DNA of 64,000 nt from Nitrospirales bacterium (GCA_030648395.1 JAUSHW010000201.1:1046-65045), one strand, 5' to 3'. Positions 2,970 through 63,931 are shown, numbered from the stretch's first letter. Numbers and translations are program-made. The notes: generated by a model not told the origin, from the letters alone.

Positions 2970-2978
2970 TGTGCTAGT

Positions 2979-3096
2979 CCTCCTTGGTTGTAGCCGGTGC
3001 CGCTTCCGCCGCGCCGGCCGTGTGGTTTATCAATCCTGCATACCTATAACTGAGTCACTCAGCTATTGTCAAGAGAATTCGAAAATAATTCTCCCT
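2979..3096 (-). promoter_or_regulatory. 118-bp promoter/operator/leader element, copy 1
   Basis: Identical to 4782..4899. On the minus strand: TTGACA (3072..3067), 18-nt spacer holding the perfect palindrome CTGAGTGACTCAG (3050..3062), TATAGG (3048..3043), ~55-nt leader, then AAGGAGG RBS. Confidence 0.65.
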
Positions 3097-4544: not shown

Positions 4545-4773
4545 TGACGAGTTCGCACTGTCCGCATGGAAGAGGATCATCTGGTGAGTTGAAATGCCAC
4601 GCTGCATGCCCCGCACTTTCAGTATATTCCAAGATAGAAGCCAATCGCTTGATCGTTTCGACTGGCACGGACACTTCAATGGTTTGCGTACCCTTGCCGT
4701 GCTTCTTTTCGGCCTTAAATCCAAATCTGTAGCCGCCGAATCCTACTACTGATCTACACGTTAAATACGTCAT
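4507..4773 (-). CDS. hypothetical protein (88 aa), first gene behind promoter/leader copy 2
   Basis: ORF 4507..4836 trimmed to MTYLTCRSVVGF. ATG 4773 lies downstream of the repeat-borne AAGGAGG. Confidence 0.6.
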   Translation of the reverse strand: MTYLTCRSVVGFGGYRFGFKAEKKHGKGTQTIEVSVPVETIKRLASILEYTESAGHAAWHFNSPDDPLPCGQCELVNGWFRLLQVPQL

Positions 4774-4781
4774 GTTCGCGC

Positions 4782-4899
4782 CCTCCTTGGTTGTAGCCGG
4801 TGCCGCTTCCGCCGCGCCGGCCGTGTGGTTTATCAATCCTGCATACCTATAACTGAGTCACTCAGCTATTGTCAAGAGAATTCGAAAATAATTCTCCCT
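4782..4899 (-). promoter_or_regulatory. 118-bp promoter/operator/leader element, copy 2
   Basis: Identical by eye to 2979..3096 (offset 1803 bp). TTGACA at 4875..4870, palindrome at 4853..4865, TATAGG at 4851..4846. It sits in the divergent gap between the leftward and rightward blocks. Confidence 0.65.
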
Positions 4900-11023: not shown

Positions 11024-12562
11024 GTGGCCGTTAAGCACGCATTCGTCTCCGCCATCGCGGACGAGGCCGACGCGACCCTCGTTCGACCCTCGAACTGGAA
11101 CGACGATCACACGATCGAGGCGGGCACGATTACGCTCGCCATGCAGGCGGATATCGCCACGGCCTCCATTCTCGGGCGAAGCACGGCCGCGACGGGCGTC
11201 ATCGAAGTCCTCTCTGCGGCGACGACGAAGTCCCTCCTCTCGCTCAATCTCGTCGAAAATACCGCCCTCTCCACCTGGGCCGGCAGCACCGCCATCACCA
11301 CGCTCGGGACGATCGCCGCCGCCAGTATCCCCGAGAGTATGCTCACCTTCACGGACATCACGACCGGAAACGCATCCACTTCGAATCACGGTTTTCTCCT
11401 CAAGCTCAGCAATGTCGCCACGCAGTATATGGACGGGACCGGTGCGTGGAGCACGCCAACCGCCTCAGTGACGCTAGATGGCGTCTCAGCCGCCGTTGCC
11501 GACCAAGCTGGCATTGCGAACGCGGACTGGAACATCGTTTGGAACTGGCAAAAGACGACGAACAGCGAGATTGCGTTCACGTTTGGCGAGTCGGTGGCAA
11601 GCACGAACGGCACGTCTACCAGCGGCGTGCCCAATCAAATCCTTGCCAAGTTCATCACGAAGACCGGCAGTACGATGTCTTCGGCGTCGTTCTGGTCGCG
11701 TGGGGTACATGTGTTCAGCGTGTCGCCAACGACGGCGCAACTCCTGTTCACTGATGGTAGCGCGTCGGCTCCCTCAATCGCTGGGTCTAGTGCGCCGACA
11801 ACTGGAATTTCATTTGGCGGCGCGATCAATATAAATAAATCAGGACTACTCGTTTCGAGATGGAATGGCATCGGCCTTGAGATTTTCCAAGCCGGGTCGT
11901 CCTCTCCGCTTGGTGGATACTGGTCTGACCTCGGCATCGCCGCAGGGACACAGCCCACCGCCACACTCTCAACGTTCGGGATGGCCTACGCCGGGTCTGA
12001 CACATCCGGAGCGCAGATAGGTGGCTATAAGGCACGAGGCGGATTCGGTGGGGGCTTTGCCGCCATCACCAGTGGCGACGATATGCTCAAGCTCGTCGGT
12101 GAGGGACGAGTGGGTGGTACAAATGGGTGGCAGATGGGGGCCTTTATATCGCTTACTTCTACTGGGACTATCAGTGATAGCGCCACGGGCATTGGCGGCA
12201 TGATTAAACTCGCGCACGCCATCGTTGGCGCAGAGCCTGTTGTAGTCGCAACCGTTAAGTCTCAGCACATCATCCACAGCGGCACGGCACCCACGATTAC
12301 GGCAGGCGGCGGGACGAACCCCACTATCGTTGGGGCAGACGAAGCCTTTGAAGTCACGATTGGCACCGGCGACGTAGCGACCAGCGTAGAAGTCACCTTC
12401 GGGAATGCCTTCACAACCAACGCCCCGATCTGTGTCGTGCAGTCCGATACGGACATCGTGCCATTTAAGTGTGTTACAACGGTTACAAAGGTCACGATCA
12501 CAGCGACCCTGGCGTTTACCGCAGGGAGTATTCTCCATGTTGTCTGTCGGGGGTGGGAGTAA
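11024..12562 (+). CDS. tail fibre-like protein (512 aa)
   Basis: GTG start. N-terminus FVSAIADEADATLVRPSNWNDDH resembles conserved fibre N-termini. Ser/Thr/Gly/Ala-rich beta-type composition. Followed by a tail-collar protein. Confidence 0.65.
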   Translation: MAVKHAFVSAIADEADATLVRPSNWNDDHTIEAGTITLAMQADIATASILGRSTAATGVIEVLSAATTKSLLSLNLVENTALSTWAGSTAITTLGTIAAASIPESMLTFTDITTGNASTSNHGFLLKLSNVATQYMDGTGAWSTPTASVTLDGVSAAVADQAGIANADWNIVWNWQKTTNSEIAFTFGESVASTNGTSTSGVPNQILAKFITKTGSTMSSASFWSRGVHVFSVSPTTAQLLFTDGSASAPSIAGSSAPTTGISFGGAININKSGLLVSRWNGIGLEIFQAGSSSPLGGYWSDLGIAAGTQPTATLSTFGMAYAGSDTSGAQIGGYKARGGFGGGFAAITSGDDMLKLVGEGRVGGTNGWQMGAFISLTSTGTISDSATGIGGMIKLAHAIVGAEPVVVATVKSQHIIHSGTAPTITAGGGTNPTIVGADEAFEVTIGTGDVATSVEVTFGNAFTTNAPICVVQSDTDIVPFKCVTTVTKVTITATLAFTAGSILHVVCRGWE

Positions 12563-14114: not shown

Positions 14115-17036
14115 ATGGCGAGTACACCAGCAATTATCGTTGACGGCGCGACCAACAGCGTCAAAGGGCAGCCGGGGTCCAGCGACGCCGGCGGCGCGGT
14201 CGTTCTTGCAGGCGGGCTCGGGGCCTCCACCTATGCGGGTGGACTGGTTTCCCTGACCGGCGGCGCGGGCACCACAACTGGGGCCGGCGGGGCTGCCAGT
14301 GTGGTCGGCGGCGCGGGCGGGGATGACGCCGTCGGCGGCACGCTGACCCTCACGGCCGGCGCGGCCGGCGGGGGCAATCGTGCGGGAGGGGCGACCACGA
14401 TCGCGGGCGGAGCCGGTAGCGGCACCGGTGCGGGTGGCGCGGCCACGCTCACCGGTGGAGCCAGCGGAACGGGCGCCACGGGCGCGGGCGGTGCCGCAAC
14501 GGTGACGGGCGGCGCGGCCAGTTCGACGAACAATGTGGGCGGCGTGGCCTCGGTCGTCGGCGGCGCGGGAAACGGAACGGGCAACGGTGCTGCGGCGAAG
14601 CTGACCGGCGGCGTCGGCGGAGCCACCTCTGGCGTCGGCGGCGCGTGCACGATCAAGGGCGGCGCGGGCGGAAGCTCGGCGGGAGCGGGCGGCGCGGTGA
14701 CGCTGGACGGTGGCGGGGCCACGGCCGCGGCCACGGCCGGCGGAGCAATTACGATCACAGGCGGATTGTCGACGACCTCTGCCGCGGGCGGCGCGGTGAC
14801 GCTCGTCGGCGGCGGTGTCGGGACGACCGGAATTGGCGGACTGGTCTCCATCACGGGTGGCGTCGGTGGGACGTCGGGTGCGCGTGACGGCGGTGCGGTC
14901 TCGCTGATCGGCGGCGCCACGGGCGCGGCCAGCACGGGCGTCGGCGGCGTGGTCACGATCACCGGCGGTGCGAGCACGGCCGGCGGGGCCAGCGGAGCGG
15001 GCGGTGCGGTCGCCATTACGGGCGGCGCGGCCGGGACGACGAACGCAGCCGGCGGGGCGGCCAGCCTCATTGGCGGTGCGGGATCCGGAACGGGGAACGG
15101 CGGAGCGGTCACGTCCACGGGTGGACTCGGCGGGGCGACCTCCGGAGTCGGCGGGGCCCTGGTCTTCACGGGCGGCGCGGGGGGATCCTCGGCCGGCGCG
15201 GGCGGCGCGGTTTCGCTGATCGGTGGGGCGGCTACGGCCGGCGCCACGGCGGGCGGCGCGGCAAATTTGAAGGGCGGCGCGAGCACAGGATCTGGAACCG
15301 GCGGACTGGTCACCATCACCGGCGGCGCGGGGAGCGCGGCCACGGGTGTCGGCGGCGGGGTCACCGGAGCGGGCGGACTCGGAAATACGACCGGCGCTGG
15401 TGGGGCGGTCTCCTGGACGGGCGGCGCGGGCGGCACGGATGCCGTCGGCGGGACGGCCAGTCTGATCGGCGGCGCGGCCGGCGGTGGAAACCGTGCAGGC
15501 GGTGCAGCCGCTCTGACGGGCGGCGCGGGTGCGGGGACCTCCGACGGCGGAGCCTCCACGGTCACCGGCGGCGCGGGTGGGGCGACCTCCGGTATCGGTG
15601 GGGCGGCCTCCATCGTGGGCGGTGTGGGCGGAACGTCGGCCGGTGCGGGCGGGGCGGCTCTCGTCACGGGCGGCGCGGCCACGGGTGCGGCCACAGCCGG
15701 CGGGGCGGTCACGATCGCGGGCGGACTCTCGACGACCTCTGCGGCAGGTGGTGCGATTACGATCACGGGCGGCGGCGTCGGGACGACCGGAGTCGGCGGA
15801 TCGGTGGCGGTTGCCGGTGGCGTGGGCGGCACCTCGGGTGCGAGGAACGGCGGTGCCGTCTCGGTGATCGGCGGCGCAGGTGGCGCGGCGGGTATCGGAG
15901 ACGGTGGGATTGCCACCTTCAAGGGTGGTGCGAGCGGAACGGGTGCCACGGGCGCGGGCGGTGCGTTAGCCATCACGGGCGGTGCCGCGGCCTCGACGGA
16001 CGGTGCCGGTGGTGCGGGCGTCATCGCGGGCGGCGCGGGCGCGGGCACGGGCGCCGGTGGACTGGTCTCCCTGACGGGCGGCGCGTCCGGTGCGGGCGCG
16101 ACGGGCAACGGTGGCGCCGCAACGTTGAAGGGGGGAGCCTCTCTGTCAACGGCTGGCGACGGTGGGGCGGTGAGCGTGACCGGCGGCCTGGGCACGACGA
16201 CCGGAGCGGGCGGGGCCATCACGGTGACGTCTGGCGCGGGCGGGACGTCCGGTCTGAGCGGCGCGGTGACGATTGCGAGCGGCGCGGGTGGGACGACCTC
16301 GGCGTCGGGTACGCTGACGATTCGCACGGGTGCCGTCACGGCGACGGCCGGTGCGGCTTCCGGAGCCATGACCATTGAAACCTCTGCCGGGGCAACCGGA
16401 GCAACCTCAACGAACGGCGGCGCCTCGGGTGCGATGACCTTACAGACGTTGGCCGGCGGGACGACGGGGACGGGGACCGGCGGCGCGGGCGGACTCATTT
16501 CAATCCTGACGGGCGTCGGCGGTTTGACGACGGGCGTGGGAACCGCGGGCGGAGCCGGCGGTGGCCTGACCGTGACGACGGGCAACGGTGGCGCGGGCTC
16601 AACCCCGACCACGGGCGGTGTGGGCGGCGCGATTGCCGTGACGGCCGGGAACGGTGGCAACGGGACCACGGGCGGTGTGGGCGGCGCGATTGCGCTCGTG
16701 GCCGGTAATGCCGGAACGGGCGGGAACGTCAACGGGGCGAACATCGACCTGACGCCCGGGACGCTGACGGGGACGGCCTTGAACGGGCATGTGCGGATTG
16801 CACCGGCCACGGCGACGCCGGCCAACGGCGTCTCATCCGGGACGATTGCGAGCAAGGTCGGTCTTCTGTTCGGGAGCACGGCCGGATTCGGCATCTACAT
16901 CGGATCGAGCACGCCGTCTCTGACGGCGGCCCAGGGCTCGTTGTATCTGCGGAGTGACGGCTCGAGCACGAGCACGCGGGCGTACATCAATACGGACGGC
17001 GGGACGACCTGGACGGCCGTGACGACCGCCGCATAA
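14115..17036 (+). CDS. Gly/Ala/Thr-rich repetitive fibre protein (973 aa)
   Basis: ORF track. CAGGAGG RBS. Dozens of GGxGG / (T/S)(L/I)(T/I)GG units with long-range internal duplications. C-terminus GSLYLRSDGSSTSTRAYINTDGGTTWTAV resembles fibre-tip motifs. Confidence 0.8.
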   Translation: MASTPAIIVDGATNSVKGQPGSSDAGGAVVLAGGLGASTYAGGLVSLTGGAGTTTGAGGAASVVGGAGGDDAVGGTLTLTAGAAGGGNRAGGATTIAGGAGSGTGAGGAATLTGGASGTGATGAGGAATVTGGAASSTNNVGGVASVVGGAGNGTGNGAAAKLTGGVGGATSGVGGACTIKGGAGGSSAGAGGAVTLDGGGATAAATAGGAITITGGLSTTSAAGGAVTLVGGGVGTTGIGGLVSITGGVGGTSGARDGGAVSLIGGATGAASTGVGGVVTITGGASTAGGASGAGGAVAITGGAAGTTNAAGGAASLIGGAGSGTGNGGAVTSTGGLGGATSGVGGALVFTGGAGGSSAGAGGAVSLIGGAATAGATAGGAANLKGGASTGSGTGGLVTITGGAGSAATGVGGGVTGAGGLGNTTGAGGAVSWTGGAGGTDAVGGTASLIGGAAGGGNRAGGAAALTGGAGAGTSDGGASTVTGGAGGATSGIGGAASIVGGVGGTSAGAGGAALVTGGAATGAATAGGAVTIAGGLSTTSAAGGAITITGGGVGTTGVGGSVAVAGGVGGTSGARNGGAVSVIGGAGGAAGIGDGGIATFKGGASGTGATGAGGALAITGGAAASTDGAGGAGVIAGGAGAGTGAGGLVSLTGGASGAGATGNGGAATLKGGASLSTAGDGGAVSVTGGLGTTTGAGGAITVTSGAGGTSGLSGAVTIASGAGGTTSASGTLTIRTGAVTATAGAASGAMTIETSAGATGATSTNGGASGAMTLQTLAGGTTGTGTGGAGGLISILTGVGGLTTGVGTAGGAGGGLTVTTGNGGAGSTPTTGGVGGAIAVTAGNGGNGTTGGVGGAIALVAGNAGTGGNVNGANIDLTPGTLTGTALNGHVRIAPATATPANGVSSGTIASKVGLLFGSTAGFGIYIGSSTPSLTAAQGSLYLRSDGSSTSTRAYINTDGGTTWTAVTTAA

Positions 17037-20679: not shown

Positions 20680-20699
20680 GCGCATAAAGGAGATCGACC

Positions 20700-21779
20700 A
20701 TGGCAACGGGAACACAGACGTATGGGCTCAGCACCCAGCGTGTCGGAAAATACAAGGGCGAGATTCTGGCCCACGCCGTCCCGGTGGAGGTGCTCGGGCG
20801 CGAAGGGCGTCAGGTTCGGATGCCGAAGAACAACAGCGACACATACGTCGCGCGGCGCTTCCTGCCGTACGGCGCGAGCTCCACGAGTGCGAGCACGATC
20901 AATCGCTTCTTCTCGGATGGGACCGGTGATCGCGGCAACGTGATCGTGCAGGCCCATCAGACGCAGGAGGGGATCACGAACGCGCCCGAGACGATCACGC
21001 CCATGGACGTGACGGTCGTGATCGTGCAGTATTCCTGCCTGTACGCCTTCACGGACAAGACGTTCGACCTCTACGAGGACGACATCCCGAAGGAGATGAT
21101 CAAGCAGGTCGGCGAGCGGGTGACGCTGGTCAACGAACTGATCGTCTACGGGGTGCTGAAGGCCTGCACGAACGCCTACTATGGCGGAACGGGCACGACG
21201 ATCGCGACGGTCAACGGCGGCCTGACGCTGGGATTGCTGCGGAAGATCACGAAGGGTCTCCAGGCGAACCACGCCAAGCCGGTCAACAAGATGCTCGGCG
21301 CGGGCGGGGACTACGGCACGGACGCCGTGGAGCAGGGGTACACGATCTACTGCCACACGGATCTGGAGCCGGACATCCGGGATCTCCCGGGGTTCACGCC
21401 GACGGTGAAGTACGCCAGCGGCAAGCCGATGAGCGAGTACGAGGTCGGGAAGGTGGAGCGGATGCGCTTCGTGACCTCCCCGGATCTGCCGTCCATTCAG
21501 GACGGGGGTGCGGCCATCGGGAGCACGAACCTGTACTCGACGTCGGATACGTCCTTGGACGTCTATCCCTTCGTCGTCGTGGCGCAGGATGCCTGGAGCC
21601 AGATTGCGGTCCGTGGGATGGAGTCCCTGGATCCGACCTATCTGGCCCCCGGGCAGAAGAGCAAGTCCGATCCGCATGGACAGCGCGGGTACGCCGGCAC
21701 CATCTGGTGGAAGGCGGCGCTCGTGGAGAATCACGGCTGGATGGCGGTCGGCCACGTCGGCGTGAAGAACCTGGTCTGA
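20700..21779 (+). CDS. major capsid protein (HK97-fold, N4 gp56-like by recall)
   Basis: 359 aa. AAAGGAG RBS. Position after the scaffold-like gene. The C-terminal pattern GQRGYAGTIWWKAALVENHGWMAV recalls the N4-gp56 capsid family. Confidence 0.85.
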   Translation: MATGTQTYGLSTQRVGKYKGEILAHAVPVEVLGREGRQVRMPKNNSDTYVARRFLPYGASSTSASTINRFFSDGTGDRGNVIVQAHQTQEGITNAPETITPMDVTVVIVQYSCLYAFTDKTFDLYEDDIPKEMIKQVGERVTLVNELIVYGVLKACTNAYYGGTGTTIATVNGGLTLGLLRKITKGLQANHAKPVNKMLGAGGDYGTDAVEQGYTIYCHTDLEPDIRDLPGFTPTVKYASGKPMSEYEVGKVERMRFVTSPDLPSIQDGGAAIGSTNLYSTSDTSLDVYPFVVVAQDAWSQIAVRGMESLDPTYLAPGQKSKSDPHGQRGYAGTIWWKAALVENHGWMAVGHVGVKNLV

Positions 21780-27239: not shown

Positions 27240-28067
27240 ATGGGCGCGGCGCAACAAGTCATTCTCGCGGGCGGGGCGCCGAAGACGTACGACATGCTGG
27301 TCGTGGCTGGCGGGGCCTCCGGCGGAAGCAACGAGGCCGGCGGCGGCGGGGCCGGTGGGGTTCATAACTATACTACACAGACGCTCGTCGTGGGTGTGGG
27401 CTACGCCGTCACGGTTGGCGCTGGCGGTGTGGGCGTTACGAACGCGAACGGGAACCCTGGGACGAATTCGGTATTTGCTGGCACGTCCACGCTGACGGCA
27501 GGCGGGGGCGGATACGGCAACGGGGTCCTCGGAAACGGCGGCGCGGGAGGATCTGGCGGTGGTGGCGGCGGCACGACGGCCACGACCGGGGGTGCCGCGA
27601 ACGGCAACGGAACGGGCAACGCGGGCGGCGGCGGCACGCTGGATACCTCGCGTGTCGGCGGCGGTGGCGGCGGGTACACGGCCGCTGGACAGACTGCGAC
27701 GACGAATGGTATTGGAGGGAACGGCGGAGCCGGTCTCACTCTCGACGCTACGACCGCCGGCTTGTCGTCATTTAGTGGCATGACCGTGGTCGCATCGGGC
27801 GGCGGGGGATCTGGAAATGTGACCCCCGGGACCGGTGGAACGGGGGCCGGGAATGCGGTGTATGCCGGCGGCGGCGGGTCTGCCACCTCGTTTGGTTCTG
27901 GCGGGGGCGCGAACGGAGACGGCGGGTCTCCCAGCGGCGCGGGCAAGGCCGGCGTCGTCGTCGTCCGTTATGCCGGCGCGCAGTCCGCGACCGGCGGGAA
28001 CGTGATCACCACCACGGGCGGATTTACCTACCATGTGTTTACGAGCAACGGAACATTTACGCCCTAA
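27240..28067 (+). CDS. glycine-rich domain protein (275 aa)
   Basis: Runs of GGGGxG and NGNG. The ending GKAGVVVVRYAG...GGFTYHVFTSNGTF is typical of phage glycine-rich fibre-module proteins. Confidence 0.65.
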   Translation: MGAAQQVILAGGAPKTYDMLVVAGGASGGSNEAGGGGAGGVHNYTTQTLVVGVGYAVTVGAGGVGVTNANGNPGTNSVFAGTSTLTAGGGGYGNGVLGNGGAGGSGGGGGGTTATTGGAANGNGTGNAGGGGTLDTSRVGGGGGGYTAAGQTATTNGIGGNGGAGLTLDATTAGLSSFSGMTVVASGGGGSGNVTPGTGGTGAGNAVYAGGGGSATSFGSGGGANGDGGSPSGAGKAGVVVVRYAGAQSATGGNVITTTGGFTYHVFTSNGTFTP

Positions 28068-28079
28068 AGGAGATCGACG

Positions 28080-28421
28080 ATGCCACCCGGAGATAACACA
28101 CAACAGGCCGCGACGATTGCCTCCCAGGCGAGCGGGATCTTGAGTCACATCGGGACGCTCGGGTCGCTCATCAATACGATCGGCTTCGCGAATGTCTTGA
28201 TTGCCGGCGGGATGGTGTGGGTCTTTTCCTTCTTTATGGGCTGGGTGCCGAACCCGCTCGTGAGTTCGACGTCGTTCAATACCCACATCGAGAGCCAGGC
28301 TGAGCAAGTTCGGTTTACGAGGGAGATGGTCAAGCAACTGCGCGAGATTAAGTGCGACGGGAAGACCACGCTTCGGGAGACGAAGGACTGCTACAAGCAA
28401 GAGTCCATCGACTGGAAGTAG
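28080..28421 (+). CDS. membrane protein, holin candidate (113 aa)
   Basis: AAAGGAG RBS. Hydrophobic helix FANVLIAGGMVWVFSFFMGWV, then a charged C-terminus. First gene of the lysis cluster. Confidence 0.45.
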   Translation: MPPGDNTQQAATIASQASGILSHIGTLGSLINTIGFANVLIAGGMVWVFSFFMGWVPNPLVSSTSFNTHIESQAEQVRFTREMVKQLREIKCDGKTTLRETKDCYKQESIDWK

Positions 28422-60244: not shown

Positions 60245-60556
60245 ATGGACGCAGCAGCGACGGCGGCGGTGCGGGCGCGGCTAGAAGATATTGACCAACT
60301 CACGGGCGAGTCCTATGATCTTATTTCTGAAAGTGAGAGGCGAACCAACTATATCAATGCCTGTCGAATTGCAAGAAGCATGGAAGCCGAGCGTAACGCG
60401 CTGGCGCGGCGGGTGACGTGGCTGGAGGAAGGCAAGCAAGCGGCATTGTTTGTAAAGCAACAGCGCGAAAACACATCGGCAGGATCACTTTCAGAAATTG
60501 AAGCGGTGACACATTTACTCGACTGGCTGGCCCGCGAGCCGAAGGAGACGACATGA
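60245..60556 (+). CDS. hypothetical coiled-coil protein (103 aa)
   Basis: ORF 60209..60556 trimmed to MDAAATAAV. GGAGAAAGG RBS. Confidence 0.5.
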   Translation: MDAAATAAVRARLEDIDQLTGESYDLISESERRTNYINACRIARSMEAERNALARRVTWLEEGKQAALFVKQQRENTSAGSLSEIEAVTHLLDWLAREPKETT

Positions 60557-60843
60557 CCCCTAACACGGCGGCGATCCGGGCCGACGCCGACCAGGAGACC
60601 ATTGCGCGGCTGCGGGAGGCACTTAACATTGACAGACTCGTAGATAAATTTCTTGCATGGCCGTTGCCGGAGAGCGTCTGTAGTGATCTCTGCGCCACCA
60701 AGCAAAACTATCCGCACCGCTCAGGTACGAATTTACTGTCTGCTGACGAGGCAAAGAAGATGCTCGAATACTTGTTACGGCAGGCCCTCGGCGGGGAGCT
60801 CTTGACATCCCCCTCCAATCCTGGTATCCTGCCGCCGCAATGA
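60553..60843 (+). CDS. hypothetical protein (96 aa)
   Basis: ORF track. ATGA overlap. Confidence 0.55.
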   Translation: MTPNTAAIRADADQETIARLREALNIDRLVDKFLAWPLPESVCSDLCATKQNYPHRSGTNLLSADEAKKMLEYLLRQALGGELLTSPSNPGILPPQ

Positions 60844-61226
60844 CGCCTGTTACACGCCGCGGGCTGCTGAAGGGACTCCTCGGACTGACCGCCCTGTCGG
60901 CCATCGGGCCGGTACTCCCGGCGGTGTTGCCGGTGGCGGCCGCGGTACCGGCTCTCGCGACGGTCAACGGCGGACTGACGCTTGCGCATCTCAGAAAAAT
61001 TGCGTGCGATCTTCAGGCCAACGCGGCCCCCATGCTGGACGAGGGCTATTTTATCGGGCATTACGAGTCCTTCCGCTTTATCACCGCCAACGAGTTCTAC
61101 GCCCCGCCTCCGCGTGCCGGCGGGCTGCGGTTCACGAAGGACGGCGCCGAGGTGAACCCGCGGGAGTACTTCGGGCCGGATCGCGTGTGGAGATCTACGA
61201 AGGAGCATGCCCTTGACATTCTCTAA
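60840..61226 (+). CDS. Tat-signal protein carrying a major-capsid-protein-like segment (128 aa)
   Basis: N-terminus TRRGLLKGLLGLTALSA...AVPALA is a twin-arginine signal with an AxA site. The following ATVNGGLTLAHLRKIACDLQANAAP matches capsid residues ATVNGGLTLGLLRKITKGLQANHAKP (20700..21779). Confidence 0.6.
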   Translation: MTPVTRRGLLKGLLGLTALSAIGPVLPAVLPVAAAVPALATVNGGLTLAHLRKIACDLQANAAPMLDEGYFIGHYESFRFITANEFYAPPPRAGGLRFTKDGAEVNPREYFGPDRVWRSTKEHALDIL

Positions 61227-61240
61227 ACATGTGGTATACT
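61213..61240 (+). promoter_or_regulatory. strong sigma70-type promoter TTGACA-N16-(TGg)TATACT
   Basis: Overlaps the last codons of 60840..61226. It drives the mini-ORF/terminator unit. Confidence 0.6.
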
Positions 61241-61303
61241 GGATGCTTGCGATCTGGACCCTGGTTTCGGCGCACCGTCTCATCGAACGAAAGGAGGCAC
61301 CCC

Positions 61304-61330
61304 ATGCGTTGCACTCACGAGAGCAACTGA
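61304..61330 (+). CDS. 8-aa leader-type mini-ORF (MRCTHESN)
   Basis: AAAGGAGG RBS 7 nt upstream. Lies between the promoter and the intrinsic terminator. Confidence 0.35.
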   Translation: MRCTHESN

Positions 61331-61371
61331 GCTCCCTTTACAAGTACACTGATACTTCACTAACGGCAACA

Positions 61372-61409
61372 GGGGCCGGCGTTCTCTCGAAGGGCGCCGG
61401 CCTTTTTGT
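61372..61409 (+). terminator. rho-independent terminator
   Basis: GGCCGGCG-13 nt loop-CGCCGGCC followed by TTTTT. Confidence 0.75.
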
Positions 61410-61418
61410 GTGTACGGT

Positions 61419-61616
61419 ATGATACTCCGTCAGGGGTGGCGCCGGCATCGTCTTGGTTACCGCTGGATCTATGTGTTTACCTATTGCCTCAACGGCTTCT
61501 ACGTGAGGCGTACACTCCTGCCGGCTGAGATCCGCGCGGCCAAATTCAATGCCTGGGAGGCCGAGGAGCGGGAGGCCGTCTGTCTTGCTCGGCGGCACTG
61601 TGGGATTCTCTCGTGA
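61419..61616 (+). CDS. hypothetical basic protein (65 aa)
   Basis: ORF 61410..61616 trimmed to MILRQGWRRH. GTGA overlap with the primase start. Confidence 0.45.
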   Translation: MILRQGWRRHRLGYRWIYVFTYCLNGFYVRRTLLPAEIRAAKFNAWEAEEREAVCLARRHCGILS

Positions 61617-63931
61617 GTGACCGCTGGGGAGCCTCCCAAGAAGACTGGACCCACTGGTCGAGGACGCTCGGCCTCACCGAGGACCTGCTCCCGGTCGTCT
61701 GTAATCCCCACGCGCCGCTGCACGCCGCCTCGAAGGTCACCTCCATCGGCAAGCTCCCCTCGCGCTACGTCTCAGGCGGCGCCCTGTGTGGCATCCCGGC
61801 GTGGACGTCACTCCACGCCACCCCGGGGCAGGTCGAGGACTGGGGCCGGGAGCCGGACTATGGGCTCTGCCTCCAGACACGGCGGGTTCGCGCGCTGGAC
61901 GTGGACGTCACCGATCCGGAGCAGGCGGAACAGATTCTCCTCCAGCTCGCGGGTCCTCTTCTCGGCTATCGTCGTACGCGATCGGACTCGAGCAAATTTC
62001 TTCTCCTCTTCAGACTTGACGGAGACTGGGGGAAGCGTACGCTCGAGGTCGAGCACGGCATCATTGAATTCCTCGCCAACGGCCAGCAGTGCGTCGTCGC
62101 CGGTACCCACAAGGACGGCGCGCGCTACGAGTGGACTCCCTCACGGCCGGATTCAATCCCCACGCTGACCGCTGACCAATTCGAGCAGCTCTGGTCGGAC
62201 CTCGTGCTCCTCTTCCTCAAGCCCGGCGGGCAGACGACCGAGGCCCGTGTGCGGCGGGCGCGTGGCGTGCATGATCGTCAGTTACCGACTGACCCCGCGA
62301 CCATCACGATCGGCGATCCGGTCGTGTACTTCCTCGAGCGACGCGGGCTCCTCCTTCCTGACTCGGATGCGGGCCATTGCTATGTCACCTGCCCATGGGC
62401 CTCCGACCATACCGCCGGGGGAGACCCCACGGCCAGTTGCTGGTTCCCTGCGGGGACGGGGTCGTTTGACCAGGGCTGGTATCGGTGCCTTCACGCGCAC
62501 TGCGCCTCGCGCTCACAGATGGACTTCCTCTCGGCGATCGGCTACGCGACGGATGGCTTCGAGGCCCCGGAGGGGGGCCCCTCACGCCTCGGCGGGCCGC
62601 TGGACACGGAGGCTCAGGCCGCGCTGGCGGCCCTGGGGGTGGATCTGGCATCGGACCTGGCGGCCCCGCCGCGGGGCGCCGATCCGGATCCCCTGCCGCC
62701 GTTCGAGCGCGACCTCCAGACCTCCTGGATTCGGTGCGTGGAGCGGAACGTGGTGCTCGCGGTCCGCCGGCCGGATCTCTGCGGCGTGCGGGTGCTCTAC
62801 GATACCTTCACGGACGCGCTCCTGGCCGAGCGCGACGGCGTCCGCCGGCCGTTTCGCGATGAGGACTATACGGCCATCGCGCTGGCGCTCCGGGGGCAGA
62901 TTGGGGGCGTGATGAAGGGCTTCGGGCCGGGGGACATCCCGAAGGAGGCGCTCCGTGCCGCGGTGGCGTTCGTGGGGCGCGAGTCGGCGGTGGACTCGGC
63001 GCAGGAGTGGCTCGCCACGCTCCCGGCGTGGGACGGGGTGCCGCGGGTGGCGGGCTTCTGCACGGACTACCTCGGCTGCCCGGCGTCGGACTATGCCCGG
63101 GCGGTCGGACGGTACTGGTGGACGGCCCAGGCCGGACGGGTGCTCGATCCCGGGTGCCAGGCCGACATGGCCGTCGTGCTGATTGCCGGGCAGGGGACGG
63201 GGAAGACCTCCACGCTGCGGGCCCTCGTCCCCGAGGCGCGGCAGTATGTGGAACTCAATCTGATGGACCGGGACGAGGACCTCTCGCGCCGCATGCGGGG
63301 CGTGCTCGTGGGCGAGATGGCGGAGCTGCGCGGGATCAACAGCCGGGAGATGGAGAGCATTAAGGCCTGGATCAGCCGCCGGGAGGAGAGCTGGGTCCCG
63401 AAGTATAAGGAGTTCGCGACCACGTTCCCCCGGCGCCTGGTCCTCGTGGGGACCTCGAACCAGGAGGAGTTCCTCGCCGACGAGACCGGGAACCGCCGCT
63501 GGCTGCCGATTGTGGTCGGACTGCGGCAGGACGTGGACGCCATCGCGCGGGATCGGGACCAGTTGTGGGCCGAGGGGCGGCTGCTCTTCGAGGTCGGACT
63601 GCTGGACGACGGCATGGGGGTCCTGTGGCGGGACGCGGAGACGCTGGCGAAGCTCGAGCATGAGCAGTTTCGTCTGGTCGATCCCTGGGAGGGGGCGGTT
63701 CGTCAGTGGCTCGCGGAGGGCGGATTGAAGGCGGACCGGCCGGCGGATCGGGAGTGGATCACGGCGGACGACGTCCTCCACGAGGCGATACGTGTTGAAG
63801 ATCGTCAAATCAAGATGGCGGAGTATTTTCGGATTGGTAAAATACTGCATGCGATTGGTTACCAACGCGTGCCAAAACGCATTGACGGCGTCGTTAAGAA
63901 GGTTTGGGTGAAGAAAAGTGGACTTTTGTAA
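61613..63931 (+). CDS. bifunctional primase-polymerase / VirE(D5)-type helicase (772 aa)
   Basis: AEP motifs RALDVDVTD and VVAGTHKDG. Zn-like CPWASDHT...C..HC. Walker A AGQGTGKTS, Walker B LVGEMAEL, and RRWLPIVV typical of VirE/D5_N helicases. Confidence 0.85.
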   Translation: MSDRWGASQEDWTHWSRTLGLTEDLLPVVCNPHAPLHAASKVTSIGKLPSRYVSGGALCGIPAWTSLHATPGQVEDWGREPDYGLCLQTRRVRALDVDVTDPEQAEQILLQLAGPLLGYRRTRSDSSKFLLLFRLDGDWGKRTLEVEHGIIEFLANGQQCVVAGTHKDGARYEWTPSRPDSIPTLTADQFEQLWSDLVLLFLKPGGQTTEARVRRARGVHDRQLPTDPATITIGDPVVYFLERRGLLLPDSDAGHCYVTCPWASDHTAGGDPTASCWFPAGTGSFDQGWYRCLHAHCASRSQMDFLSAIGYATDGFEAPEGGPSRLGGPLDTEAQAALAALGVDLASDLAAPPRGADPDPLPPFERDLQTSWIRCVERNVVLAVRRPDLCGVRVLYDTFTDALLAERDGVRRPFRDEDYTAIALALRGQIGGVMKGFGPGDIPKEALRAAVAFVGRESAVDSAQEWLATLPAWDGVPRVAGFCTDYLGCPASDYARAVGRYWWTAQAGRVLDPGCQADMAVVLIAGQGTGKTSTLRALVPEARQYVELNLMDRDEDLSRRMRGVLVGEMAELRGINSREMESIKAWISRREESWVPKYKEFATTFPRRLVLVGTSNQEEFLADETGNRRWLPIVVGLRQDVDAIARDRDQLWAEGRLLFEVGLLDDGMGVLWRDAETLAKLEHEQFRLVDPWEGAVRQWLAEGGLKADRPADREWITADDVLHEAIRVEDRQIKMAEYFRIGKILHAIGYQRVPKRIDGVVKKVWVKKSGLL

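Follow-up and report, generated by a model that had tools for sequence, protein, structure and literature searches.

Several described systems put a capsid protein, or part of one, to a second use. Encapsulin shells and the satellite capsid homologues that resize helper capsids both show capsid homologues recruited for other purposes; to our knowledge, such reuse has involved the whole shell-forming fold, and we know of no case that carries an export signal. A short capsid stretch can also have an activity of its own within the capsid protein, as has the Gol peptide of T4 gp23, which activates the Lit protease. Separately, phages encode small accessory proteins that mediate superinfection exclusion or act on the envelope, including T4 Imm and Sp, T5 Llp and HK97 gp15. 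Proteins of this type carry Sec signals, lipoboxes or membrane helices, not a twin-arginine (RR) signal, and we know of none that derives from a capsid protein. Here, we characterize ORF128, an open reading frame (ORF) of 128 codons in a 64,000-nucleotide stretch of DNA from a Nitrospirales bacterium (GCA_030648395.1 JAUSHW010000201.1:1046-65045; hereafter the window) that is most of an N4-like phage genome. ORF128 combines a predicted twin-arginine translocation (Tat) signal with two pieces resembling the phage's major capsid protein and a C-terminal module. The relevant features are as follows.

60840..61226, + strand: ORF128, ATG start, 128 amino acids (aa); RR signal, two capsid-derived pieces and an orphan C-terminal module
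60840..60956, + strand: twin-arginine-type signal peptide, aa 1-39; T-RR-G-L-L-K-G, a ~30-residue uncharged core, then A-L-A
60951..61034, + strand: piece 1, aa 38-65; corresponds to capsid aa 167-194 (21198-21281), a loop and helix of the A-domain
60955..60982, + strand: candidate gene-conversion tract of 28 nt; 27/28 identical to the phage's own capsid gene and 26/26 to the capsid gene of a 94%-identical relative
61047..61097, + strand: piece 2, aa 70-86 (YFIGHYESFRFITANEF); corresponds to capsid aa 247-263 (YEVGKVERMRFVTSPDL, 21438-21488), a beta-hairpin of the A-domain
61104..61193, + strand: orphan C-terminal module of ~30 residues (PPRAGGLRFTKDGAEVNPREYFGPDRVW); the most conserved part of the family, with no relatives found
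20700..21779, + strand: major capsid protein gene of the N4-gp56 family (phrog_1357, E 3.9e-51; TIGR04387, E 2.3e-53); putative source of both pieces

We lean, by a narrow balance, toward reading ORF128 as a functional, fast-evolving accessory gene in the early or replication region of an N4-like phage, in which a signal, capsid A-domain pieces and a C-terminal module are joined in a protein predicted to be exported by the Tat pathway.

ORF128 belongs to no described family; it comes nearest to Tat substrates and to the small accessory proteins that phages target to the envelope, and its capsid-fragment origin is unusual. Its family shares with the Tat signals described by PF10518 and TIGR01409 the S/T-R-R-x-F/L-L-K/T motif, a moderately hydrophobic uncharged core and an A-x-A end. 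Unlike known Tat substrates, it is a phage protein of ~90 aa without a cofactor-binding signature, and its export is a prediction. As in the N4-gp56 capsid protein (TIGR04387, HK97 fold, PDB 9E99), the A-domain helix region and beta-hairpin are present and most invariant residues are retained there; in contrast to that protein, ORF128 represents ~45 of 359 residues, has no N-arm, E-loop, P-domain or spine helix, and carries an export signal and an unrelated C-terminal module, with the order of the pieces permuted in two family members. ORF128 falls outside the capsid family and cannot assemble a capsid shell.

The other comparisons are similarly partial. Like T4 Imm and Sp, T5 Llp and HK97 gp15, ORF128 is small, phage-encoded, predicted to be targeted to the envelope, located outside the structural genes, and variable among close relatives within a mosaic region; it has no sequence relationship to them (no PHROG hit). 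As with encapsulins and satellite capsid homologues, an HK97-type capsid gene would have been the raw material for a new function, but those systems keep the whole fold and form cytoplasmic shells, whereas ORF128 is a small sub-domain fragment with an export signal. As in the Gol case, what matters biologically could be a stretch of ~25-30 residues from a major capsid protein; Gol differs in being part of the capsid protein itself, cytoplasmic, with neither a separate gene nor an export signal. In a literature search, we found no earlier example of a phage Tat substrate with homology to capsid proteins.

The local homology of ORF128 to capsid A-domain elements was detected by BLASTP, hidden Markov model (HMM) searches, hhalign and sequence shuffling. 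BLASTP aligns ORF128 39-63 with capsid 168-192 at 18/25 identical residues (pairwise E 1e-7). The initial annotation of this DNA, made from the sequence alone, had reported this match as 20 of 26; the match stands and the count is corrected to 18/25 ungapped, or 19/26 with one gap. We built a capsid-family HMM from 121 capsid sequences and searched it against 1157 six-frame ORF fragments of the window, which returned the capsid and ORF128 only, the latter with an E value of 2.5e-6. ORF128 scores 23.6 bits against this profile, compared to 8.1 bits for the best of 4000 shuffles, and piece 1 has a domain score of 20.4 bits. The proposed alignment is therefore significant when computed (window-wide E 2.5e-6; 0/4000 shuffles). 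No full-length capsid-family match was obtained (no TIGR04387 or phrog_1357 hit); only capsid residues 165-192 and 245-260 align.

At the DNA level, 60955-60982 matches 21202-21229 at 27/28 positions (blastn E 2.6e-7 over the whole window), the sole significant non-self blastn match of ORF128 within the window. The near-identity of the first ~27 nt had been noted previously and recurs here with correct coordinates, with A40 of the ORF beginning at 60957 and A169 of the capsid at 21204. By codon comparison, 8 of the 18 conserved codons in piece 1 differ synonymously only. Thus, piece 1 is not a very recent duplicate, its amino acid sequence has been kept, and a very recent duplication is ruled out as the source of the whole match. 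The codons for LRKI do differ synonymously as described, with the copies exchanged in that description: ctcagaaaaatt is the ORF copy and ctgcggaagatc the capsid copy. Piece 1 retains 10 of the 11 capsid-invariant residues of its stretch.

The second match lies elsewhere than first proposed. A weaker collinear resemblance between EGYFIGH and QGYTIYCH appears in none of the computed alignments; the profile instead places the second match at ORF128 70-86 and capsid 247-263, so that ~55 capsid residues are omitted between the two pieces. Piece 2 keeps the capsid-invariant residues G250, E253, R256, F257 and T259. It reads FRFIT, the majority capsid consensus, where the phage's own capsid reads MRFVT, and it is nearer to foreign capsids than to the window's own capsid at both the DNA and the protein level.

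Both pieces can be placed on a known structure. The window capsid aligns to coliphage N4 gp56 (PDB 9E99, E 8.4e-13), with window residues 165-192 corresponding to about N4 187-222 and 247-263 to about N4 281-297. The N4 loops 184-203, 223-242 and 300-328 have been assigned to the A-domain, and loop 184-203 forms part of an outer-surface protrusion (PMC11768535). From this alignment and these loop positions, both pieces are A-domain elements. Low-confidence AlphaFold2 models of ORF128 (helix 48-68, strands 72-75 and 78-81) and of the capsid (helix 177-189, strands 248-252 and 255-259) have in common the order of a helix followed by a hairpin, which lends weak support to the modeled correspondence.

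ORF128 is one of five family members. A word-indexed search of 5.8 billion proteins and a HMMER profile search of 1.84 billion representative proteins yielded four relatives, P0002 and P0124 (47% identical) and P0003 and P0125 (36% identical); the profile search of representatives added only P0124 and P0125, and its further hits, P0126 and P0127, were rejected as repeat-protein noise. A scan of IMG/VR with the family alignment found no relatives, and a search of phage GenBank with the 6-kb region found distant primase matches only. All four relatives come from Hainich groundwater assemblies, and each has the same primase gene a short way downstream. ORF128 itself (P0001), P0003 and P0125 are on contigs of 59-66 kb, and P0002 and P0124 are on contigs under 2 kb. 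The C-terminal end is near-invariant in all five members (PPKAGGLRFTKxGVEVDPxDYFGPDRVW); compared to the capsid, the best hhalign match of this module, at capsid 209-240, is not significant (E 0.61). The ratio of nonsynonymous to synonymous substitution rates (dN/dS) lies at about 0.3-0.6 in the family, with 0.33 for P0003 and P0125, and 0.27-0.5 by segment for P0002 and P0124. These values below 1, together with four intact homologues upstream of the primase on independent contigs, bear out the suggestion of the initial annotation that this is a maintained protein rather than a dead fragment. The ORF is present and intact in its relatives.

We compared the score of each member against the capsid profile with the scores of 4000 shuffles of its own sequence.

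P0001 (ORF128): 23.6 bits, reached by 0/4000 shuffles
P0003: 13.3 bits, reached by 0/4000 shuffles
P0125: 8.5 bits, reached by 0/4000 shuffles
P0002: 1.7 bits, reached by 21/4000 shuffles
P0124: 1.0 bits, reached by 21/4000 shuffles

With the window protein left out of the alignments, hhalign matches P0003 and P0125 to the capsid alignment at capsid 243-263 (E 5.3e-5), and P0002 and P0124 at capsid 166-193 (E 0.011). The order of elements in ORF128, P0002 and P0124 is signal, helix piece, hairpin piece and C-terminal module. In P0003 and P0125, the order is signal, hairpin piece (EVGRCESVRFITAP), helix piece, a MYYxxLVHxxYxxxLxDL stretch that by eye resembles capsid GYTIYCHTDLEPDIRDL, and C-terminal module. 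The permuted order could have arisen by duplication followed by differential loss.

The signal is the second shared property. In ORF128, T-R-R-G-L-L-K occupies aa 5-11 and the ALA site aa 37-39, just before the capsid-like stretch. In 5/5 members, a hydrophobic stretch comes after a S/T-RR-x-[FL]-L-[KT]-G motif, which reads TRRGFLT in P0002 and P0124, SRRSLLK in P0003 and SRRSLLT in P0125. We employed a rule-based Tat scan that demands an RR motif, an uncharged hydrophobic core of at least ~13 residues and a small-x-small site; ORF128 and P0125 passed, and the scan detected no second credible RR N-terminus among all possible ORFs of the window. Among curated models, the family-model hits of every member are confined to PF10518 or TIGR01409. 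P0002 (17.2) and P0124 (17.0) exceed the TIGR01409 cut-off of 16.7, and P0003 and P0125 fall under both curated Tat cut-offs. The initial annotation had called a textbook Tat signal in ORF128. Its motif, core and ALA site hold, the curated HMM cut-off is not reached by the window protein, and on these sequence features a Tat signal is likely.

A second protein shares the signal. In locus L005, the gene after P0124 encodes a different, 92-aa protein with an RR signal (MIPITRRLILKGLLGWTALATVG) and a Cys-rich, unrelated mature part. Its signal matches that of ORF128 over 16/23 residues (phmmer E 2.1e-5 against the six-frame window). The signal module is therefore reused on different cargoes in this slot, which points to export as a selected property. 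As a separate observation, this ORF (L005 625-900) has one 98%-identical twin and no further relatives in 5.8 billion proteins, and the last 12 residues of its product match the end of a 79-aa gene at the equivalent position in L004.

The piece 1 DNA has a composite history. Over its first 27 nt, ORF128 agrees with the phage's own capsid gene at 25/27 positions and with that of the 94%-identical relative P0004 at 26/26, but at only 20/27 with the capsid gene of P0006 (77% identical at the protein level); the two capsid lineages differ from each other at 8/27 of these positions. In the 45 nt that remain, it is equidistant from both lineages (25/45 each). The ~28-nt tract begins exactly after the predicted ALA cleavage site. 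We hold with moderate confidence that the capsid pieces were captured long ago and that a ~28-nt tract was later overwritten from this lineage's capsid gene. The description of ORF128 as containing a fragment of the phage's own capsid protein is accordingly right for the lineage-specific ~28-nt patch; it does not extend to the rest, as there are two pieces, the likeness is family-wide and old, and piece 2 is nearer to the general consensus. For the type-B homologues, P0003 and P0125, the loci used span 20 kb of their contigs, and the supposition that capsid P0023 lies on the same contig proved wrong.

Synonymous divergence also varies along the gene. P0002 and P0124 are identical over codons 1-69 save for one synonymous change (dS 0.018), while the hairpin piece at codons 70-98 has a dS of 1.37 and a dN of 0.68, and the C-terminus a dS of 0.16. 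Between the window and the type-B phage L001, dS is 0.81 for the primase and, within the ORF, 1.17 for the signal, 1.32 for the middle and 0.12 for the C-terminal module. The DNA of that module is 89% identical over 84 nt (window 61107-61190 versus L001 10298-10381), in a homologue 36% identical overall. The low C-terminal dS reflects either a recent exchange of the module or constraint at the DNA or RNA level. The ORF128 gene is a recombination mosaic whose segments have different histories.

Under the accessory-gene reading, an ancestral phage of this clade would have copied pieces of its capsid gene into a small exported ORF, and gene conversion would later have refreshed the ~28-nt tract, with the capsid gene of the window's lineage as donor. 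The product would fold in the cytoplasm, leave via the host Tat pathway and be cut after ALA, and the mature protein would then act in the periplasm or at the inner membrane. Its role there is a more tentative matter. We consider it possible, at perhaps the strength of an informed guess, that ORF128 is an envelope-level accessory factor, acting for example in superinfection exclusion or in the modification of an envelope component, with the C-terminal module as the active part and the capsid-derived alpha/beta unit as a folding scaffold. The guess draws on the presence of a signal, the protein's small size, its location in a variable early region and which of its parts are conserved.

Several results weigh against the accessory-gene reading. 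The capsid matches together cover only ~45 residues, and piece 2 alone is weak in the window protein (1.9 bits). The ORF128 signal scores 14.6 bits with PF10518, below the curated cut-off of 22.7, and is not hit by TIGR01409 at E up to 1; P0003 fails the rule-based scan, with 12 uncharged residues followed by an Arg. The conversion tract rests on 5-7 nucleotide differences. The AlphaFold2 models are unusable by their predicted local distance difference test (pLDDT) scores, 40.6 for ORF128 from a three-sequence alignment and 35.0 for the capsid from 25 close homologues with too little diversity. Searches of PHROGs, PADLOC, Pfam and PDB sequences gave ORF128 no membership in a described superinfection-exclusion, defence or anti-defence family. 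Finally, the family has five members, and all its statistics rest on few sequences.

If the accessory-gene reading is true, it would show new phage accessory genes being assembled from scraps, namely short stretches of an essential structural gene combined with an export-signal cassette and an orphan module, with these modules shuffled within a hypervariable slot beside the primase. It would add an instance of capsid-protein reuse at the scale of a small sub-domain fragment, and would make ORF128 a candidate Tat-exported phage effector. Its practical weight is limited, with five members that all come from groundwater metagenomes.

An alternative, which we regard as unlikely, is that the capsid resemblance is itself the function. 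ORF128 would then be an exported, folded mini A-domain, kept capsid-like by recurrent gene conversion, that serves as a decoy for a host or rival factor recognizing the capsid surface or as an exclusion factor against related phages. The patch specific to the window's own capsid lineage hints at this, as do the invariant residues kept in piece 1 of the window copy, the persistence of capsid-like pieces in 5/5 members despite fast divergence and rearrangement, and the alignment of the patch with N4 gp56 184-203, an A-domain loop at the outer surface. However, selection for capsid likeness sits poorly with P0002 and P0124, which are far less capsid-like (1-2 bits), with a piece 2 that resembles the general consensus more than it does the capsid of the window, and with a best-conserved part that is the non-capsid C-terminal module. 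The location is a further difficulty: the capsid sensors known to us are cytoplasmic, whereas ORF128 carries an export signal, and we know of no entry of capsid into the periplasm during infection. If this mimic proposal were true, no secreted phage effector derived from a capsid would have been described before ORF128.

Slightly less favoured again, and improbable in our estimate, is a head-assembly regulator in the cytoplasm or anchored in the membrane. Here, the N-terminus would be an uncleaved anchor or would go unused for export, and the A-domain-like unit would bind capsid subunits at the capsomer centre and modulate or poison the assembly of the phage's own heads or those of a competitor. 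Satellites encode capsid homologues that redirect assembly, which provides a parallel, and the Tat HMM scores are sub-threshold in 3/5 members. The pieces also come from the A-domain, which makes intra-capsomer contacts (PMC11768535). Set against this, the gene is located in the early or replication block at a distance of 40 kb from the head genes, the family keeps the S/T-RR-x-F/L-L-K/T motif exactly, and the same signal occurs on the unrelated Cys-rich protein, pointing to export as the selected property. A role in assembly is less likely, given an export signal that is both conserved and reused.

We give very little credence to ORF128 being a chance open frame over a decaying remnant of a partial capsid-gene duplication, or over an assembly chimera. 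Long spurious ORFs are common at 60-65% GC and a 28-nt identity could in principle mislead an assembler, but intact homologues with the same neighbours occur on independent contigs from several samples, dN/dS is below 1, the signal motif and C-terminal module are conserved, and the capsid-like parts of the relatives have diverged rather than being identical to capsid genes. Least credible of all is a chance resemblance without common origin, between an amphipathic helix and a short RF-I-T motif, which the shortness of the matches (25 and 17 residues) and two members barely above background would allow, but which the window-wide E value of 2.5e-6, the 0/4000 shuffles for three members, the independent matching of the same two capsid segments by other members and the 27/28 DNA identity (blastn E 2.6e-7) refute.

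The genomic setting of ORF128 comprises the following features.

60553..60843, + strand: upstream ORF of 96 aa, whose stop overlaps the ORF128 start (ATGA)
60802..60830, + strand: sigma-70-like promoter match directly upstream of ORF128, TTGACA-17-TATCCT, 10/12 with a TG extension; a consensus match only
61613..63931, + strand: Prim-Pol / VapE-like primase-helicase of 772 aa (PF05272, E 2.6e-55), the downstream neighbour in all related loci

The ORF reported at 60840-61226 is confirmed as ATG-initiated, with 128 aa. ORF128 and the upstream ORF are probably translated as a pair, coupled through the ATGA overlap. The same overlap of start and upstream stop is present in relatives, which suggests an operon. 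The primase follows ORF128 at a distance of ~390 nt, and the placement of ORF128 beside replication genes, as originally described, applies both here and at the homologue loci, with the VapE-like primase downstream. By the usual mark of a moron gene, its own promoter and terminator, ORF128 has the promoter-like site; the terminator at 61371-61405 is part of a separate promoter-terminator unit downstream. ORF128 is an exact match to a hypothetical protein recorded at NCBI for a 'Nitrospirales' metagenome bin, where its contig measures 65.7 kb, and apart from the Tat-signal models it has no match in PHROGs, PADLOC, PDB sequences, Pfam or NCBIfam. Elsewhere in the window, the portal gene is situated upstream of the capsid gene, and an ORF of 3851 aa has the size of an N4-type virion RNA polymerase, which we presume it to encode on the basis of that size.

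Directly after ORF128 lies a compact unit (window 61213-61405, + strand), with the same layout in the type-B phage L001 (10891-11070). Its near-perfect sigma-70 promoter (TTGACA-16-TATACT, 11/12) lies inside the last codons of ORF128 and is followed by a strong ribosome-binding site (RBS), an 8-codon ORF (AAAGGAGGCACCCCATG, MRCTHESN) and a terminator of a 15-bp hairpin and T-run. In L001, the promoter reads TTGACT-17-TATAAT and the encoded peptide is MRCTSNGN; around the RBS and ATG, the two units share 27 identical nt. On this layout, the unit is a candidate gene for a small RNA or a micropeptide; a scan of 60500-61700 against Rfam found no match. Window 61293-61323 is reverse-complementary to 61608-61636, at the primase start (GTG at 61613), over 27/31 positions including 12 perfect bases (CACTCACGAGAG), and L001 has a weaker version of the same complementarity, to the primase codons for RWGA. 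This pairing may provide antisense or leader control of primase translation. RNA duplex energies computed between the small transcript and the primase start were inconsistent between phages, with a method ill-suited to such long inputs. At the L001 primase, the first ~30 codons occur twice (11077-11560; MSNRWGASPEEWAHWSQTLGLTEDLLPVVC, MTQWGVSPETWRHWSSHLKLTEDLLPVVC), flanking an inserted Cys/His-rich ORF of ~95 aa with a promoter-like site, and by eye this insert resembles a homing endonuclease insertion of the HNH or endonuclease-VII type.

Further repeats and unusual coding sequences were observed in the window. An ORF of 973 aa just upstream of the portal gene (14115-17036, + strand) is extremely Gly/Ala-rich and internally repetitive, at 75% GC. 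Arrays of a 21-bp tandem repeat (GTACGCGGCCCnCGCCTTGnC, ~22 copies) span 195-620 and 816-1075 within overlapping long ORFs and imply either that the encoded protein has 7-residue repeats or that this end of the genome is rich in repeats. Two copies of a 127-nt direct repeat, with 97% identity to each other, are found at 2970-3096 and 4773-4899, 1.8 kb apart. The RBS and start context of the capsid gene (TAAAGGAGATCGACCATGGCA, 20685-20711) recurs with 85% identity at 28065-28091, before another late gene.

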